A program made the position numbers and the translations under genes. A stretch of 64,000 nt of DNA from Escherichia phage JS98, in sequence record NC_010105.1. One strand, 5' to 3'. The notes beneath the pieces are model-generated. The model had not been told where the DNA came from and searched no databases. It saw nothing but the letters and a program-made list of their open reading frames with translations. Of this stretch, positions 5,292 through 21,435 are shown in pieces (positions within the stretch are counted from its first letter, which is position 1; every line of letters begins with the position of its first letter).

Positions 5292-6788
5292 ATGCAAATT
5301 CAAGTACATTTTGATAATTTTAGTCATGTCCGTATCGAGTGTGATGAATCTACATTCTACGAACTCAGAGACTATTTTAGCTTTGAAGCTGATGGGTATA
5401 AATTCAACCCTAAATTTCGTTATGGGCAATGGGATGGACGTATTCGTCTTCTGGATTATAACCGTAAACTGCCTTATGGACTTGTTCCTCAAATTAAAAA
5501 GTTCGCTGAACAATTTGAATATTCTCTGTGGATTGACCCACGTATTCTTGAACAGGAAGATATTTCTCGTGAAGATTTTGACTCATGGGTAGCTTCTCAA
5601 GAAATTTATTCAGGGTCTACCAAGATTGAGCCTCATTGGTATCAGAATGAAGCCGTATACAACGGCCTGACAAAACGTCGCGCAATTCTGAATTTACCTA
5701 CATCCGCAGGTAAATCATTAATCCAGGCACTCCTGAGTCGATATTACGTTGAGAACTATGAAGGTAAAATCCTTATCTTAGTTCCTACTACTGCACTTGT
5801 CGACCAGATGATTAATGACTTCATTGATTATCGTTTGTTCCCTAAAGATGCTATGCTTGGTATTCGTTCAGGTACTGCTCGTGATTCCGATGCAATGATT
5901 TATGTTTCAACTTATCAAACGGCTATTAAACAACCTAAAGAATGGTTTGCTCAGTTTGGTATGTTTATGAACGACGAATGCCATTTGGCAACAGGTAAAT
6001 CAATTTCTACTATCATCGAAGGCCTAACCAATTGTATGTTTAAATTCGGTTTGTCTGGTTCTTTAAAAGATGGTAAAGCCAATTTAATGCAATATATGGG
6101 TTTATTTGGTGATGTGTTTAAGCCAGTATCCACTTCGCAGTTAATGGAAGAAGGACAGGTTACAGACCTTAAAATCAACAGTATTTTCCTTCGGTACCCA
6201 GACGAATTCACTGTTAAGATGAAAGGTAAAGATTACCAATCAGAAATAAAGGTCATTACTAAGGCTACTCGTCGTAATAAATGGGTTGCTAATTTAGCTG
6301 TTAAACTCGCTAAGAAAGAAGAGAACGTATTCCTGATGTTTAAAAACATCGAGCACGGTAAAACTCTTTTTGAAATGGTTAAAGAGCAACATAAAGAAGT
6401 TTATTACGTATCAGGTGAAGTTAATACCGAAACGCGTAATGCTCTGAAAGTAATGGCGGAAAATGGTAAGGGTATTATTGTTGTGGCAAGTTATGGTGTG
6501 TTCTCTACTGGTATTTCCGTTAAGAACCTTCACCATGTTGTATTTGCTCATCCGGTAAAATCCAAAATCATTGTACTCCAGACAATCGGTCGTGTACTCC
6601 GTAAACATGCTTCTAAATCAACAGCACAAGTTTGGGACATTATAGACGACATGGGCGTTAAGCCTAAATCAGCAAATGCTAAAAAGAAATATGTTCATTT
6701 GAATTATGCATTAAAACATGCCTTAGAACGTATTCAACGTTATGCTGACGAGAAATTTAATTACGTAATGAAACAGGTGGATTTATGA
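5292..6788 (+). CDS. uvsW: UvsW SF2 DNA/RNA helicase
   Basis: 498 aa; Walker A LPTSAGKS, DEAH-like MNDECH, helicase C motifs; T4 position. Confidence 0.9.
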   Translation: MQIQVHFDNFSHVRIECDESTFYELRDYFSFEADGYKFNPKFRYGQWDGRIRLLDYNRKLPYGLVPQIKKFAEQFEYSLWIDPRILEQEDISREDFDSWVASQEIYSGSTKIEPHWYQNEAVYNGLTKRRAILNLPTSAGKSLIQALLSRYYVENYEGKILILVPTTALVDQMINDFIDYRLFPKDAMLGIRSGTARDSDAMIYVSTYQTAIKQPKEWFAQFGMFMNDECHLATGKSISTIIEGLTNCMFKFGLSGSLKDGKANLMQYMGLFGDVFKPVSTSQLMEEGQVTDLKINSIFLRYPDEFTVKMKGKDYQSEIKVITKATRRNKWVANLAVKLAKKEENVFLMFKNIEHGKTLFEMVKEQHKEVYYVSGEVNTETRNALKVMAENGKGIIVVASYGVFSTGISVKNLHHVVFAHPVKSKIIVLQTIGRVLRKHASKSTAQVWDIIDDMGVKPKSANAKKKYVHLNYALKHALERIQRYADEKFNYVMKQVDL

Positions 6789-15092: not shown

Positions 15093-15099
15093 CAAAAAA

Positions 15100-15117
15100 G
15101 GAGAGCGTAAGCTCTCC
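15100..15117. terminator. Bidirectional hairpin GGAGAGC-GTAA-GCTCTCC after gene 54
   Basis: 7 bp stem flanked by A-run and T-run. Confidence 0.6.
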
Positions 15118-15126
15118 TTTAGGGGT

Positions 15127-15417
15127 TTATTTACGGAACGAAATGAAACCTGCTGCTGTCATTAATGGCTGCTTTTTAACAAAGACCGTAATAGAAATAG
15201 GAGCTTCAGATTCAAGCTGGCCGGTTACTACACCATTAAAGATATTTTCAGTTTGTTCGGGTTGTGAAAAATTTTCAATTGGACGTAAGTCGAACTGCTT
15301 GTCTTCGCCGAAAACTCGACGTAATTCATTACCGACTGCACTGTCGAACTCTTCAGAAGCAGGGATAACGTTTTCAACTACCAGTTCTTGACCGTTAAAG
15401 CGGAATGCAGATTTCAT
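15127..15417 (-). CDS. Hypothetical early protein (alt.-x position)
   Basis: 96 aa ORF with SD-ATG and its own early promoter. Confidence 0.55.
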   Translation of the reverse strand: MKSAFRFNGQELVVENVIPASEEFDSAVGNELRRVFGEDKQFDLRPIENFSQPEQTENIFNGVVTGQLESEAPISITVFVKKQPLMTAAGFISFRK

Positions 15418-15445: not shown

Positions 15446-15475
15446 ATAGTACCACATCCTTGTGGTGTTGTAAAC
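15446..15475 (-). promoter_or_regulatory. T4-type early promoter (-35 GTTTAC, 17 nt, -10 TACTAT)
   Basis: rc of 15469-15475 and 15446-15451; conserved leader CTTACACAAACATGAGGAGAAC before the ATG. Confidence 0.55.
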
Positions 15476-17601
15476 TACATTTTGAATTTATTTGGTAAAG
15501 AAGAGATGTCCAAAGATGCAGCAAGGATTTCCATAGCCTCATTACTTTCTGAAACAGATTCTGAAACTAGGAATTCTTTAAACCCGTTCATCAATTTAAC
15601 TTCACCGGTTTCCATCAGATGGTCACCATCGTAAACGGACTCACTGAGTTCTGAAGGAGATGTCACTGTAGCTTCCATAAGGTATTTGTGAGATACTCTA
15701 TCATTCATAGCAAAAGCCGCTACTTTATCAACCTTCAACAATAATCCTCGCGGAAGGATAATTTCTGCTTCTTCGGAATATTCTGTAAGGTCACCAGGAG
15801 CGATAACTTTAACTGCTTCAGCACCTCGAATAACCATACCGATTTCAGCAATCCTGTCTGCAGGGCCTTCAGGTGCAATTGGATTACCGAACTCGTCTTC
15901 TTCCCATTCTACCTCTTCATCATCAACTTCGCCTACATCAGATGAACTACCACTGGCTAATTTAAACAACTCATCAGCGGAGGATAAAGAACCTTCATCA
16001 CCAACAAAAACTGCTTGGTTGTCGAGGGCCATATAATTTTTACCAAATTCGCCAAAGATATTAGGCTTTAATGAAGCAGACACAAAGTTCTTAAAGTAAA
16101 ATGTTTTGTTATCAATATTATGGCGCAGAATTTTGTATGGTAAATCCTGACCACGATACAAAATAGTACCCTTAGGAAGTTTAATACCCTTGGTAAATGC
16201 TGAGTCTAAATCCTTAATCAATTTAATAGCTGTTGTATTGTTTTCGGATTCAGGTTTACCTAAAAGGAATAAGTTCATAGGAGCATATTCAGCCGCACAA
16301 TATTCAATAATGGCATTGCTTTCGTCTTTGGTCAAGCCCTTAGGTTTAATGAGCTCGCCTGAATAAGCATATGCATCGCTAATAGAATCGTTAATCAGTT
16401 TATAAACGGCTTCCATAGCGAAAGCAATTCGGGATGCTTTCTCTGAAGGAGACCCCTGAAAACGGGCACTCAGGTTATTAACAATTCTCTTAATAATATC
16501 CAGACTATTGGTAGTATTGATTTGAGAAAGGCCACTTAAAAGTCTATCGACTTCCGTATTAAAAAATGCCATATTATTAGAGTAAATTTCAAACCCTTGT
16601 TTATCTCTATTAGCATAATTTAGTTTAAATTTACTATCAGTCATTAAAGCGTGCGTGAGAGCAATGGTGTATCTAAAGTTGGCAAGGTCCTCACTCTTAG
16701 ATTTAAACTGAGAGGCCTGACGCATTTTAGTAATAGCACCTTTTTTAAAGTTCTGACTAATCTGCTCAATACCTTCGTTCTCAGGGCCTTCGGCCGAGTG
16801 AACAGGGACAGAAGCTTCAAACTCGTTATAAACCTGCAATTCTTTAGGTGATAAAGTTTCAGGTTCGGCAGTAGAATACTGCGCTGCTGCAGCCATACGA
16901 CGGGAAATCTTAGTACGAGAAATAACAGCCTTATCGGTACGTTTCTCTTCAACCTGTGCAATAGATGCTGCTACGGCTTCGACCTTACTTACAGCCTGGC
17001 CGGTTTTCTTAGAAACATAAACTTCACCGACTTTAGACTCAACCTTGGTATAAAGGTCCGCATCAATTTCAGGCATACCCTTGATATCTTCGATATTAGT
17101 GCCACGACGTGCTAAAAGAACGTATGTATGTTTACCACTAAACTGGAACATATCATCGACAACTTTAAACTTACCACCGGTACGGGCCATCGCCAAACGA
17201 GCTAATACACGCTGAACAGTAGGGCCTTTACCTTTCATTTTCTTGGTAGGGAAACGGAATAAAACCGCATCCATTTTAAGTTTATTTACTTGTTCGTATA
17301 TCGTATCGAAAATAGTATTCAATGTACCAAGTGGGTCGGAACCAAGGCCACCTTTGAGTTCAGCCGGGGCACCCTTGCTCGACAAACTCATTAAAATAAC
17401 ATGGACATATTTGTCGCCTGGCTTAACCATTTTAATAGCGTCTCCTTGAGACGCATAAGATACCATACGAGCAACCAGGTTATCGTTACCCGGTGCATGG
17501 ATAGAGAAAATCTGTGGAATACCGGAACCCGGTTTAAGATTTGTTACTGGATAGTTTTTAGCGGAATCACTATCAAAAACCTCGTTTAAATTTTCCATCA
17601 T
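15475..17601 (-). CDS. Alt-family ADP-ribosyltransferase, paralog 1
   Basis: 708 aa; N-terminus shared with the neighbour (MVSYASxGDAIK..VKxGDKY.HVILMSLS.KG.PAELKGGLG); C-terminal R / STS-like (VSASL) / ExE (EAEIILPRGLL) ART motifs. Confidence 0.8.
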   Translation of the reverse strand: MMENLNEVFDSDSAKNYPVTNLKPGSGIPQIFSIHAPGNDNLVARMVSYASQGDAIKMVKPGDKYVHVILMSLSSKGAPAELKGGLGSDPLGTLNTIFDTIYEQVNKLKMDAVLFRFPTKKMKGKGPTVQRVLARLAMARTGGKFKVVDDMFQFSGKHTYVLLARRGTNIEDIKGMPEIDADLYTKVESKVGEVYVSKKTGQAVSKVEAVAASIAQVEEKRTDKAVISRTKISRRMAAAAQYSTAEPETLSPKELQVYNEFEASVPVHSAEGPENEGIEQISQNFKKGAITKMRQASQFKSKSEDLANFRYTIALTHALMTDSKFKLNYANRDKQGFEIYSNNMAFFNTEVDRLLSGLSQINTTNSLDIIKRIVNNLSARFQGSPSEKASRIAFAMEAVYKLINDSISDAYAYSGELIKPKGLTKDESNAIIEYCAAEYAPMNLFLLGKPESENNTTAIKLIKDLDSAFTKGIKLPKGTILYRGQDLPYKILRHNIDNKTFYFKNFVSASLKPNIFGEFGKNYMALDNQAVFVGDEGSLSSADELFKLASGSSSDVGEVDDEEVEWEEDEFGNPIAPEGPADRIAEIGMVIRGAEAVKVIAPGDLTEYSEEAEIILPRGLLLKVDKVAAFAMNDRVSHKYLMEATVTSPSELSESVYDGDHLMETGEVKLMNGFKEFLVSESVSESNEAMEILAASLDISSLPNKFKM

Positions 17602-19689
17602 TTACCCTTGGATGAATTTTTCTGGTATGCCATAGAGGTCTATGCATGAAGCCAAAAGAGGCAGTACGTCAAACCGTGTAGATTTAACAAATGAATCAAA
17701 AGATACAGGGCTTTCGGAAGTATCGAAGTCATCTTGGTATACGACCAACTCACCAGTTTCCATTAGTACGTCACCATCATACACTACAGATTCTTGAAGC
17801 TCATCTGATGTCATAACTTCAGCTTGAATAAATTTATTGTTAGACACCGCCCCAGAACCAGTATTGGCTGATGCATCCACGATTTTATCTATTTTTACAA
17901 GTAGCCCGCGTGGTAAAATTATTTCCTTTTCGTTGGCATGCATGCTTAATTGGCCAGGATAAATCACGTTAACCTTATGAGCGCCACTAATAGCCCAGCC
18001 AACATCAACACGGATTTGATCCGGTGCATACATATGTGTACGCACTTGACTAGCCGAGATGGTAACGCCTTCGTCATTATTATCAATGTTTAATTCTTTT
18101 CGAACATCATCGGAAGCAAGACCAATAGCCGCATTCTCTTTAAAGCCACCAAAAATGATTGGAGCCAATGAGGTTGAAACATAGTTTCTAAAATAGAATA
18201 CCTTATTTTTAACTAATGCTTCGTAGATAGGCGCGCGCAAAGATTGTGCTCTATAAACCATTATTCCTTCAGGTAAACGGTCACCATTTTTAAAGGCAGA
18301 ATCCATTCCATCAATAGCACGTTTAACTTCGCTTTCGTCCAAAACTTCATAAAAGCCCGGTTTATAACGGCCAAGAAGGACATTGTTAATATCAATATAA
18401 GCTGAAGAGGCGTATTCTCTGATAGCTCGTTTTTCTGCAAGTGTATATTGTTTAGGGTCTCGAGATGTTGTTATATTAAGAATTTCTCTAGTTGATTCTA
18501 TAGCGTATGTATACATTATCTTAGACAAGAATGAAGACTTACGTTGTTTCCATACTCTTTCACTGTTTTCATTCAATATCTCTTTTTCCAAATGGAAATT
18601 GTCTTTTCTATAATCTTCAAACCAATCACTTTTAATAGATTCTGCGATTTCATTAGCAGCTTCAACAAAGGCGGCTAAAGCTTTAACTGACGTGGTTTTT
18701 TCATTTTTAATTTTTTTGACAAATTTTTCTAAAGAAGAGTTAATTTTATCACCGTAAGAAACTTCATCCGCAAATTTAAATGAATCATCCATAGTATTAT
18801 AAATTTTAAAATCAATAGCCGTAGCCAGCTTATCCTTAGCTGTTTCGGATGATAATGATAATTCAACTTCGGCTGCTTGTGGAATTAATTCCGCCGTAGC
18901 AGGCGCACTGAACTCATTGGCAGTTTGTTCATATTTCTGAAATAATTCACCTTCATTACGGTCTGCTTCTAATGACTGGCTTGCCGCAATCGCACGACGA
19001 GAAATCTTAGTCTTGGTTATAACCATTTTATCAGTGCGACGTTCTTCAACTTTAGCAATACTGCCGGCAATAGCGGTTTCTTTAGTAACCTGAGCGCCTT
19101 CTTTTTTAGAAATATAAACTTCACCAACATCAGAATCTACCTTAGTATATAATTCGGCATTAATTCCAGGCATACCTTTGATATCTTCGATATCAGCTTG
19201 TTTACGAACTACTAGGATATAAGTATGTTTACCGGTAAATTGGTACATGGCTGGAACTACTTTAAAACGTCCACCGGTTTTCTGTGCTACCAAACGTTGG
19301 ATAATCCGTTGGACAATAGGTCCTTGTCCTTTCATTTTCTTGGTTGGAAAACGGAACATCACAGCATCCATACGAAGCTTTTTAACTTGTTCGAATACTA
19401 CGTCGAAAATGGTATTAATAGCATCAATAGGAGTAGGGCCTAATCCACCTTTAAGTTCGGCTGGAGTACCTTTAGCTGATAAACTCATCAAAATAACGTG
19501 GGCATATTTATCACCTAATTTAACCTGTTTAATAGCATCGCCTTCAGAGGCATAAGATACCATACGAGCAACTAATTGGGATTCGGCGTCGCCAATCTTC
19601 CAAATCTGGGGTACTTTAAGTTTTGGGTTTAAGTTTACAGTAGGCAGGGTGCCTTCGGACTCAAACACCTCATTCAATTGTTCGGTCAT
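17602..19689 (-). CDS. alt: Alt ADP-ribosyltransferase, paralog 2
   Basis: 695 aa; VSTSL and EKEIILPRGLL motifs; N-terminal capsid-targeting-like sequence; position next to ligase as in T4. Confidence 0.8.
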   Translation of the reverse strand: MTEQLNEVFESEGTLPTVNLNPKLKVPQIWKIGDAESQLVARMVSYASEGDAIKQVKLGDKYAHVILMSLSAKGTPAELKGGLGPTPIDAINTIFDVVFEQVKKLRMDAVMFRFPTKKMKGQGPIVQRIIQRLVAQKTGGRFKVVPAMYQFTGKHTYILVVRKQADIEDIKGMPGINAELYTKVDSDVGEVYISKKEGAQVTKETAIAGSIAKVEERRTDKMVITKTKISRRAIAASQSLEADRNEGELFQKYEQTANEFSAPATAELIPQAAEVELSLSSETAKDKLATAIDFKIYNTMDDSFKFADEVSYGDKINSSLEKFVKKIKNEKTTSVKALAAFVEAANEIAESIKSDWFEDYRKDNFHLEKEILNENSERVWKQRKSSFLSKIMYTYAIESTREILNITTSRDPKQYTLAEKRAIREYASSAYIDINNVLLGRYKPGFYEVLDESEVKRAIDGMDSAFKNGDRLPEGIMVYRAQSLRAPIYEALVKNKVFYFRNYVSTSLAPIIFGGFKENAAIGLASDDVRKELNIDNNDEGVTISASQVRTHMYAPDQIRVDVGWAISGAHKVNVIYPGQLSMHANEKEIILPRGLLVKIDKIVDASANTGSGAVSNNKFIQAEVMTSDELQESVVYDGDVLMETGELVVYQDDFDTSESPVSFDSFVKSTRFDVLPLLASCIDLYGIPEKFIQG

Positions 19690-19712
19690 AATAATTCCTC
19701 TTTAATAACCGT

Positions 19713-19720
19713 ATTTATGC
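19713..19720 (-). promoter_or_regulatory. Possible weak late promoter (CATAAATA) for alt
   Basis: One mismatch to TATAAATA; about 25 nt upstream of the alt ATG. Confidence 0.3.
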
Positions 19721-19726
19721 CATAAA

Positions 19727-19740
19727 AGGCCCGAAGGCCT
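19727..19740 (-). terminator. Hairpin AGGCC-CGAA-GGCCT between the small ORF and alt
   Basis: On the - transcript the stem is followed by UUUAUGG. Confidence 0.45.
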
Positions 19741-19910
19741 TAAAGTGGTAGCAACGTACGATATACTTCGAATGTCGGGCCTTTTTCATAGCCGTCAAAC
19801 ACGTCTTTAAAATCGGCAAAAGCTATTTCATCCTCAAACTCTAGGATGATTTGAGAGGCCGCAGTGTTATTTGTGTTTGTTACAACAATTGTTTCTAAAT
19901 AAGCTTTCAT
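19740..19910 (-). CDS. Hypothetical small protein
   Basis: 56 aa from the internal ATG that abuts the ligase stop. Confidence 0.45.
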   Translation of the reverse strand: MKAYLETIVVTNTNNTAASQIILEFEDEIAFADFKDVFDGYEKGPTFEVYRTLLPL

Positions 19911-19911
19911 A

Positions 19912-21435
19912 TTATAGTCCAGTTTGAGACCAATCACCAAATACATCTTCAAATGTATCAGCTTCAGTTTTATCGAAACGCCAACCTTTAATAATTGGAA
20001 GGAAAATACCTACAGTATCAGTACGTCCTTTAGAATGAACCCAACCATTACATTCACAGTCAGCAATACGTCCAATCAACTTACCTTCACGAGCTTGTTT
20101 CATAAGAAGTTCACGGTCTAAATCAGGGCGGTCTTCTAATGGAATCAACACCTTTTTACCTGATTTATCTTTCTTATGGGTAGTATCTTTAAAGCCTGAG
20201 CCGCAGTCACTTGTAATTCGACGACAACGTGATACCAACTCGACACCGCCAAGTTTGTTAGGGTCCTTCGAGTGTTCATAATAACCTACCACTTCTAAAG
20301 CGATATCGATTACTTCTTTGAACTTGATAAGATTCTTAGAACGGCGGTTTTCCCAGTAGGAGTCCATGTTCTTAAGGATAATACCTTCCAGGCCTTGGTC
20401 GACATATTTCTTATAAACGACTTTAGCTTCGTCAAGATTATTGACCCATTGGTTTTCGATAGCTTCAACACGCGTTGTACCATGCAATACGACATTATGA
20501 GCAACCATAAGTTCTAAGGCAGTAAAGCGTACATCGTACTTATCGCCTTTAATTTTACCTTCGGAATATACGACATCCAATGGGACATAATCCCACGCCT
20601 GTAACACCATACCTGCTGCTTCGGTTGGGGTAATAGTTCCTTGAAGAGCCTTGTTAGCCAACCCGTTTGAAGTAGAACGATCGGCTACGGTTTGGAATTC
20701 CTTGGCTTTACTTAATTCAGGAAGTTCCTCATCAAACATACTAAACAAATCATTAGATGCTTTAGGTTCTACTTTAGGAGTGTGGTAAACTAATTCGCCA
20801 TCAATCATAACACCATTAGGATGGCGCTGTCGAGCTTCTTCGGTCATGGCCATTAATTCGGCCGCCAAAAGATTAAGCCCTTGGTATTCATTACCACCAC
20901 GAGTAAGGAATGTTACGCCATCGTTACGAACTTCAGCAAAACAACGAGCACCGTCAGCTTTTAATTGGGCGAACGCGGGCCATTTAATATTTTTCTTAAT
21001 CAAATCTTCATCATAAGAACTAGCCAACATTTGAGGTTGTTCAGGGATTAAACCTTTCCAAACCTTGTTAGCAATAGAAATCGATGCACCACATTCAAGG
21101 TCACGCATCATTACGCGACGTAATACCTCAGCGTCAGGACCCTTGGCATCAGCAATAATTTGGGCAAGCTCTTCAATAGCAGCATTACCCGTAATCTTAC
21201 GGGTGGCTAATGTGAACTCAGCGAAATCAAGAAGGTCTTCAAGTGTAATCATACCAAAGGATTGAGACGTAAATCCAGGTTCAGGCCACTTTTTAATACC
21301 GTAGTTCAGACGACGGGTATAAGCCATACGATATACACGTTTCAGAAGCTCGTTATCCTTTTCACGAGCAATAATAGCTTCTTTAGCTTTAGTAGAATCA
21401 ATAGAAGCAATTTCGTTTAAAATATCTAAAATCAT
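19912..21435 (-). CDS. 30: ATP-dependent DNA ligase gp30
   Basis: 507 aa; KADGAR adenylation motif; T4 position. Confidence 0.92.
   Translation of the reverse strand: MILDILNEIASIDSTKAKEAIIAREKDNELLKRVYRMAYTRRLNYGIKKWPEPGFTSQSFGMITLEDLLDFAEFTLATRKITGNAAIEELAQIIADAKGPDAEVLRRVMMRDLECGASISIANKVWKGLIPEQPQMLASSYDEDLIKKNIKWPAFAQLKADGARCFAEVRNDGVTFLTRGGNEYQGLNLLAAELMAMTEEARQRHPNGVMIDGELVYHTPKVEPKASNDLFSMFDEELPELSKAKEFQTVADRSTSNGLANKALQGTITPTEAAGMVLQAWDYVPLDVVYSEGKIKGDKYDVRFTALELMVAHNVVLHGTTRVEAIENQWVNNLDEAKVVYKKYVDQGLEGIILKNMDSYWENRRSKNLIKFKEVIDIALEVVGYYEHSKDPNKLGGVELVSRCRRITSDCGSGFKDTTHKKDKSGKKVLIPLEDRPDLDRELLMKQAREGKLIGRIADCECNGWVHSKGRTDTVGIFLPIIKGWRFDKTEADTFEDVFGDWSQTGL

Follow-up and report, generated by a model that had tools for sequence, protein, structure and literature searches.

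Why does a T-even phage keep two related ADP-ribosyltransferase (ART) genes side by side? The question is raised by Escherichia phage JS98, in a stretch of 64,000 nucleotides (nt) of its genome (NC_010105.1; hereafter the window), where two adjacent genes on the minus strand encode proteins of 695 and 708 amino acids (aa) of the family of Alt, the ART of phage T4. In the order of transcription, the 695-aa protein is the upstream copy and the 708-aa protein the downstream one. The stretch belongs to a Dhakavirus: the ~5 kb spanning both open reading frames (ORFs) is 99.1% identical to Escherichia phage MN04, in which both genes carry annotation, and other Dhakaviruses of the JS98/JS10 group match it at 90-97%.

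The explanation favored here, with a probability of roughly 75%, is that both genes encode functional Alt mono-ADP-ribosyltransferases of modular build, that their middle and catalytic parts have been swapped as cassettes, and that the two enzymes have partly different host targets. The tandem pair itself is old, widespread, annotated in public genomes and already known.

Two intact Alt-family genes built from modules

An initial annotation, made from the sequence, described two adjacent genes that share an N-terminus and a C-terminal ART core but have clearly different central regions, and alignment bears this out. BLASTP aligns the two proteins over their full length at 41% identity, a similarity far above chance (E = 7e-152); against T4 Alt, the upstream copy is 42% and the downstream copy 33% identical. 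In an alignment of 13 proteins, the two copies share 65% of residues over aa 1-237, 14% over aa 238-410, 39% over aa 411-625 and 40% over the last 70 residues. A comparison of the two middle-region profiles by hhalign yields a local match of just 34 columns (probability 87%).

By every feature that can be tested in sequence, both genes are members of the Alt family. Pfam PF03496 (ADPrib_exo_Tox) matches both (E 7e-18 and 1e-28), and the Alt PHROG, phrog_802, is matched over positions 1-674 of 674 by the upstream (E 1e-257) and the downstream copy (E 9e-252). Precomputed annotation places PF26846 on all homologues, including the 99%-identical P0001. No NCBIfam family matched the proteins, no relative of either full-length protein was found among PDB sequences, and profile searches of the same sequences matched ART toxins alone.

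The catalytic motifs quoted in the initial annotation are present in both proteins. The upstream copy has R480 (VYRAQ), S505/S507 (VSTSL) and E587/E589 (EKEIILPRG), and the downstream copy R483 (ILYRGQ), S508/S510 (VSASL) and E611/E613 (EAEIILPRG). The Arg, the first Ser of S-x-S and both Glu residues of E-x-E occupy invariant columns among 75-77 homologues, and neither copy has lost any of them. The ratio of nonsynonymous to synonymous substitution (dN/dS), compared within cassette type, is 0.03-0.16 in every domain, so both genes are kept by selection. Together with the intact ORFs and the invariant catalytic columns, this rules out a pseudogene or a decaying duplicate.

Each protein falls into four parts. 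AlphaFold2 models, with a mean predicted local distance difference test score (pLDDT) of 80.9 for the upstream and 75.9 for the downstream copy, begin with an alpha/beta N-domain (~aa 17-200), followed by an all-helical middle, the ART domain and a tail with little order. The N-terminal module opens with a short putative propeptide and continues as a basic domain with the same isoelectric point in both copies (9.65; net charge +11 in the upstream one). The second module would be an all-helical middle domain, the third a C3/Vis-like ART of the Arg / Ser-x-Ser / Glu-x-Glu type, presumably specific for arginine, and the fourth an acidic C-terminal tail. The ART of the downstream copy also carries an acidic loop, predicted to be disordered, placed after the S-x-S strand and before the strand leading into the Glu-x-Glu loop. 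The core of the acidic loop, DVGEVDDEEVEWEEDEFG, is an insertion found neither in alt.-2 of phage RB14 nor in the closest metagenomic relative, P0002.

These modules have different histories. The N-terminal module and the last 70 aa follow the phage lineage: in the upstream copy they are 98% and 97% identical to alta of phage JS10, and in T4 alt 99-100% identical to alt of phage teqdroes. The upstream N-module is 46% identical to that of T4 Alt; the downstream one matches JS10 altb at 99% and RB14 alt.-2 at 45%. N-domain identity is 65% between the window copies, 67% between T4 alt and RB14 alt.-2, and 42-46% across genera.

The middle and ART domains, by contrast with the lineage-tracking parts, appear to travel together as a cassette. 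Among 75 homologues their identities correlate (r = 0.92), and in 55 of 120 pairs whose N-domains are at least 90% identical, the ART domains are less than 65% identical. The cassette of the upstream window copy, here type A2, is 100% (middle) and 98% (ART) identical to one in phage KIT01 and 68% and 81% identical to the single Alt of a Mosigvirus; against JS10 alta the figures are 35% and 60%. JS10 alta in turn matches RB14 alt at 67% and 94%. The downstream copy carries type B, for which the Dhakavirus and Tequatrovirus versions are 44% and 58% identical, and whose middle domain gives just the 34-column profile match to the A-type middles. T4 alt and the middle gene of KIT01 represent further types, and one type is found on both kinds of Dhakavirus N-domain.

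The mosaicism is plain in the DNA. Window and JS10 are ~95% identical save between ~19000 and 17840, where identity drops to 40-65%; over that same interval window and KIT01 are 97-100% identical, with flanks at 85-95%. Synonymous divergence (dS) between window and KIT01 is 0.03-0.05 within the cassette and 0.51 in the N-domain. RB14 and T4 likewise have flanking genes that are 96-98% identical around alt cassettes that are 40-70% identical. The DNA of the JS10 and RB14 ART domains is 84-96% identical, while that of gp54, alt.-3 and the ligase is 62-67% identical, which indicates a lateral transfer of this region between genera. Recombination would swap the middle and ART cassette between phages, across genera too, with the conserved N-domain and tail serving as homology arms.

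Targets of the two enzymes

The model for delivery is T4 gpAlt, of which ~40 copies reside in the prohead core; gp21 removes a small N-terminal peptide, and this cleavage of the Alt propeptide is established for T4 only (PMC9958956). Once injected, the T4 protein ADP-ribosylates RNA polymerase along with other proteins (PMC9958956, PMC5512222, PMC10468400). L/I-x-E sites for the prohead protease gp21 can be recognized in the upstream copy (MTEQLNE/V, cleavage at the slash), in the downstream copy ((M)MENLNE/V) and in T4 (MELITE/L), and the E7 residue is invariant in 75-77 homologues. As in T4, the propeptide ending at L-x-E and the basic N-domain may form a lineage-tracking module that brings the protein into the prohead core and has it ejected together with the DNA. 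Both JS98 proteins would then probably enter the core, lose the residues up to the invariant E7 and leave the head with the DNA.

The sets of host proteins that the two injected enzymes modify as infection begins may overlap only in part, as the cassettes differ most in the helical domain and the active-site loops; divergence concentrated in these places fits different substrate spectra. Distinct host targets are likely on this evidence, and they are the most economical reading because the two cassette types have been kept apart under purifying selection.

Several points weigh against this explanation. Packaging, processing, injection and substrates of both window proteins are all extrapolated from T4 gpAlt. 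Among Alt proteins, only T4 gpAlt is known to ADP-ribosylate RNA polymerase alpha and other host proteins, and literature searches returned neither virion proteomics of a phage with two Alt proteins nor a functional study of a second Alt paralog. Different cassettes could converge on one main target, RNA polymerase alpha. Either gene conversion or co-adaptation to a common capsid could account for the similarity of N-domains within a genome. The downstream lineage has SAS for the near-invariant STS in addition to its 64-residue disordered acidic loop. Finally, the putative late promoter before the pair, CATAAATA, is a 7/8 match to the late-promoter motif, and motifs of this class are no commoner than chance.

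The strongest competitor is redundancy or dosage, in which the two enzymes share one principal target, RNA polymerase alpha at Arg265, and are kept for dose or for robustness across slightly differing hosts, with no new function. Both copies do share the conserved LPRG motif along with E-x-E, a signature typical of arginine-specific ARTs, and T4 and the Mosigviruses thrive with a single copy. Simple redundancy is nonetheless hard to square with cassette types that stay distinct across genera under purifying selection, and the middle domains have diverged to 14% identity; the active site, too, is flanked by loops of differing length and charge. This account is therefore unlikely.

A second competitor holds that only one copy is a packaged and injected effector, the other acting late in the producing cell in the manner of ModA/ModB, or serving as a structural or core protein with vestigial activity. 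The unusual acidic insert and the SAS motif of the downstream copy lend it some color, as does the extrapolated packaging of either copy. It is made improbable by the N-module common to both copies, with its invariant L-x-E site and a basic domain of identical isoelectric point, by the strong constraint on both ART domains, and by an expression arrangement in which one late-type promoter apparently serves both genes.

That arrangement can be followed across relatives. After the stop of alt.1 come, in order, a hairpin with a T run, CATAAATA, the ribosome-binding site (RBS) GAGGA and the ATG of the upstream gene. JS10, KIT01 and Mosigvirus share this layout of hairpin, promoter-like motif and RBS without change. 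In place of CATAAATA, 3' of the same hairpin, T4 and RB14 carry the canonical TATAAATA. The conserved hairpin, (C/T)ATAAATA and RBS precede only the first gene of the pair. An own promoter for the downstream gene was considered and rejected: no near-TATAAATA motif lies by its start, and the nearest 7/8 match is ~290 nt upstream, within the first gene. A scan for sigma-70 promoters gave a chance-level result. At the junction, the form CAAGG(G/A)TAAATNATGGAA is shared by JS10, KIT01 (at both of its junctions) and RB14. Since the abutting junction with its AAGG is conserved and no comparable promoter motif lies near the second gene, these motifs make it most likely that a single late-type promoter drives both genes and that their translation is coupled.

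Translation of the downstream gene probably begins at the second of two ATG codons, at 17598, giving a protein of 707 aa. Where all relatives read TAAATAATG, the window reads TAAATGATG, a form that creates the extra in-frame ATG, and this first ATG lies just 3 nt from the AAGG element; both facts make the second the likelier start.

Age of the pair and its fate in T4

The initial annotation saw the second copy as a departure from T4, for which it gave a single alt at this position. T4 does have one intact copy, yet it also retains remnants of a second, alt.-1 and alt.-2, and the idea of a departure was wrong or at least overstated. The T4 GenBank record attributes alt.-1/alt.-2 to an old duplication of the beginning of alt. 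Between alt and alt.-3, T4 has 423 nt (positions 5553-5975 of the extracted T4 locus, L001), which consist of nt 1-351 (95.4% identity) and nt 2042-2123 (97.6%) of RB14's second Alt gene (L004, 4001-6125). These remnants in T4 represent both ends of a B-type Alt gene that RB14 still has intact and at full length, and because they match both ends of that gene, T4 has lost ~1.69 kb of it, through a deletion accompanied by a 1-nt frameshift. As alt.-1/alt.-2 remain from a copy of the downstream type, the tandem pair is ancestral, not a new duplication.

The pair is common. It is annotated as alta/altb in JS10 and IME08; three Alt genes occur in the Dhakaviruses KIT01, WG01 and UGJNEcP3/4, and other Dhakaviruses are annotated with two or three 'Alt-like' genes. 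A full-length second gene is present in RB14 (labelled alt.-2), in teqdroes and in many further Tequatroviruses. By tblastn, Alt-like sequence was found at 1,832 places in 1,220 phage records, and about half of a sample drawn evenly down the tblastn ranking (28 of 60 records) had two or more Alt places. Relatives thus carry both genes as described orthologues, though not as genes of known identical function. Alt paralogs in T4-like phages were already noted in 2006 (PMC1524935), and a 2026 paper on Tequatrovirus 6phi13 prints the same idea of functional divergence and divergent targets (PMC13600099).

The upstream window protein is 100% identical to its MN04 counterpart and has relatives of at least 95% identity in just 8 phage records, after which the next best is the single Alt of Mosigviruses (73%). 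For the downstream protein, 42 records reach at least 90%, followed by the second Alt gene of Tequatroviruses, RB14 'alt.-2' (47%). In the favored explanation the window phage would carry cassette A2 upstream and B downstream, B being the ancient type that forms the second gene of RB14-like Tequatroviruses and was deleted in T4. The initial annotation implies that the gene was duplicated recently in this lineage and then diverged fast. Such a course is hardly credible, since, although the N-terminal 237 aa of the copies resemble each other more than either resembles T4 Alt, the downstream type has a Tequatrovirus orthologue by position and by sequence (down to a shared KFKM terminus) as well as the T4 remnant, and nt identity between the two window copies within the cassette is 33-57%, near saturation.

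Gain of copies can be seen in KIT01, whose third, middle Alt gene (L003, 4103-6148) encodes 681 aa. Its cassette is a type of its own, at most 23% (middle) and 40% (ART) identical to all others compared. Its N-domain derives from the downstream copy, and it has the Q-G/TAA/ATG junction on both sides. The extra gene sits inside the N-domain of the downstream gene, and since over its first 60 codons it matches that gene at 91-98%, the pattern fits unequal crossing-over. The tandem array would more generally gain and lose copies in this way, between repeated N-domains and junctions.

The locus and its relatives

The features of the locus are collected in Table 1. On the minus strand, transcription runs from gp30 through alt.1, the 695-aa ORF and the 708-aa ORF to alt.-3, beyond which lie the convergent baseplate genes 54, 48 and 29. 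This placement of the pair, between alt.1/gene 30 and alt.-3/gene 54, reproduces the T4 order around alt and agrees with the annotation of JS10, RB14 and Mosigvirus; the initial annotation had correctly assigned the genes to the T4 alt position. The C-terminal extensions of T4 Alt.-3 allow escape from the CmdTAC defence system (PMC11618068). A sigma-70 or early-like promoter, TTTACA-17-TACTAT, lies just upstream of alt.-3 (15474..15446, minus strand).

Table 1. Features of the alt locus in the window of phage JS98 (aa, amino acids; coordinates refer to the 64,000-nt window)
Feature	Coordinates	Strand	Basis or detail
DNA ligase gp30	19912..21435	-	window ORF order
alt.1	~19740..19910	-	window ORF order
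Upstream-gene signals	19696..19739	-	hairpin GGCCTTCGGGCC and T run 19739-19724; late-promoter-like CATAAATA 19719-19712; RBS GAGGA 19700-19696
Upstream Alt paralog ('alta' position), 695 aa, cassette type A2	17602..19689	-	ORF, PF03496, phrog_802
N-terminal module, upstream copy, aa 1-237	18979..19689	-	putative propeptide to invariant E7, then basic alpha/beta domain
Middle and ART cassette, upstream copy, exchangeable	17840..19000	-	bounded by DNA breakpoints; nt identity profiles, dS
ART domain, upstream copy, aa 411-625	17815..18459	-	R480 18250-18252; S505 18175-18177; E587 17929-17931; E589 17923-17925
C-terminal tail, upstream copy	17602-17814	-	
Gene junction CAAGGGTAAATGATG	17596..17611	-	stop of upstream gene abutting downstream start codon(s); AAGG Shine-Dalgarno-like element in last two codons (Q-G)
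Downstream Alt paralog ('altb' position), 708 aa, probably 707 aa from ATG 17598, cassette type B	15475..17601	-	ORF, PF03496, phrog_802
N-terminal module, downstream copy, aa 1-240	16882..17601	-	putative propeptide, then basic alpha/beta domain
Middle domain, all-helical, downstream copy, aa 241-419	16345..16881	-	helices in model
ART domain, downstream copy, aa 420-645	15667..16344	-	R483 16153-16155; S508 16078-16080; E611 15769-15771; E613 15763-15765
Acidic disordered loop, downstream copy, aa 518-581	15859..16050	-	64 residues; net charge -16; pLDDT <50
C-terminal tail, downstream copy	15478-15666	-	
alt.-3 homologue, 96 aa, final gene of cluster	15127..15417	-	phrog_1739 E 1e-42; synteny with T4, JS10 and RB14
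Terminator, strong, downstream of alt.-3	15097-15120		terminator scan

Compared with its nearest relatives, the pair is a variation on a common plan. T4 gpAlt (alt, P12726) has the same genomic position, the four-part layout, the L/I-x-E propeptide site, the R-S-ExE ART and the tail motifs YDGDxLMETGE and KF(x)QG. It differs in its middle and ART cassette, which is of another type (24% and 55% identical to the upstream copy, 11% and 39% to the downstream one), and in being the only intact copy. The motif VYDGDxLMETGE, at the boundary of ART and tail, is strictly conserved in every Alt type and contains an L-x-E that fits the consensus of the gp21 protease. The alta/altb pairs of JS10, IME08 and MN04 and the triple sets of KIT01, WG01 and UGJNEcP3 occupy the same locus, and the downstream window gene is 99% identical to JS10 altb; unlike JS10 alta, the upstream window gene carries the rarer cassette. 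RB14-type Tequatroviruses share the tandem arrangement, the junction sequence and the B-type second gene, but their N-domains are of the Tequatrovirus type, 42-46% identical to those of the window.

A precedent for divergent targets exists in T4 ModA and ModB, neighbouring paralogous R-S-E ARTs of one phage with different host targets (PMC10468400). The window proteins match one place only in T4, and ModA/ModB are not among these matches. The likeness lies in adjacent paralogous enzymes within one phage, while ModA and ModB are presumably small early proteins, made after infection, unpackaged and devoid of the Alt N-domain. The T-even internal proteins IPI, IPII and IPIII offer another parallel, being packaged in the head, injected and composed of a conserved targeting part and highly diverse cargo (PMC3012670). 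Their targeting signal is ~10 residues long and their cargo consists of unrelated small proteins, whereas Alt conserves a domain of 240 aa and, in nearly all family members checked, carries an ART as its cargo. With C3, Vis and iota-like toxins (VIP2 clade), Alt shares the ART fold and the R / S-T-S / E-x-E signature, at 13-25% identity, and differs by an additional variable insert that follows the S-x-S strand and precedes the Glu-x-Glu loop.

The alt locus also resembles polymorphic toxins and effectors in that a conserved N-terminal delivery module is joined to a recombining, variable C-terminus. Membership in that class, as in that of the internal proteins, was rejected, the cargo being nearly always an ART and not drawn from many enzyme families, so that the likeness is one of evolutionary mode only. 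No immunity-like gene is present in the locus, as judged from the window ORF list.

The N-domain appears confined to this family. An exhaustive HMMER search of 1.84 billion proteins recovered 70 cluster representatives, all Alt-like proteins, and in nearly all of them the match begins within ~30 residues of the N-terminus. The bearers are nearly all ART proteins of 600-712 aa. Two metagenomic proteins stand apart: P0175 (1142 aa) has the Alt N-domain, a divergent ART-like region and then a long extension, and P0177 (541 aa) has the N-domain and no recognisable ART motif. The N-domain as a general delivery module with non-ART cargo found no support, as nearly all 70 representatives bear an ART and the outliers checked, P0177 excepted, are truncated or have diverged ART-like motifs.

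The models hint weakly at a GNAT-like fold for the N-domain. Its profile found no GNAT match among PDB sequences, and hhalign against a manually entered Escherichia coli RimI sequence gave a probability of 0.1%. The conserved loop L-K-G-G-L-G includes the G-x-G but not the Q/R of the GNAT cofactor loop Q/R-x-x-G-x-G/A. GNAT membership was thus set aside as a likeness at the level of fold without sequence support, and it stays a lead.

A broader view would see the alt locus of T-even phages as an arsenal of injected effectors, in which a lineage-locked packaging module carries cassettes swapped between genera toward different targets, possibly including defence components, with a further role for a GNAT-like N-module. 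This is a speculative extension, and a doubtful one as a whole.

As first stated, the finding matters little, since public genomes already annotate the pair and the notion that the targets have diverged has been published; cassette exchange across genera and the GNAT-like fold of the N-domain are a lead that merits a short note only. The exchange does bear on the claim that such T4-like groups do not exchange genes (PMC5885020). ART domains of JS10 and RB14 that are 94% identical inside genomes that are ~65% identical run counter to this view and make a clear counter-example. The added value lies in the modularity, with a basic N-domain and an acidic tail that follow the lineage and a middle and ART part that can be exchanged. 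Natural Alt variants, with their constant delivery module and varied cassettes, would thereby form a ready panel for mapping the determinants of substrate choice.

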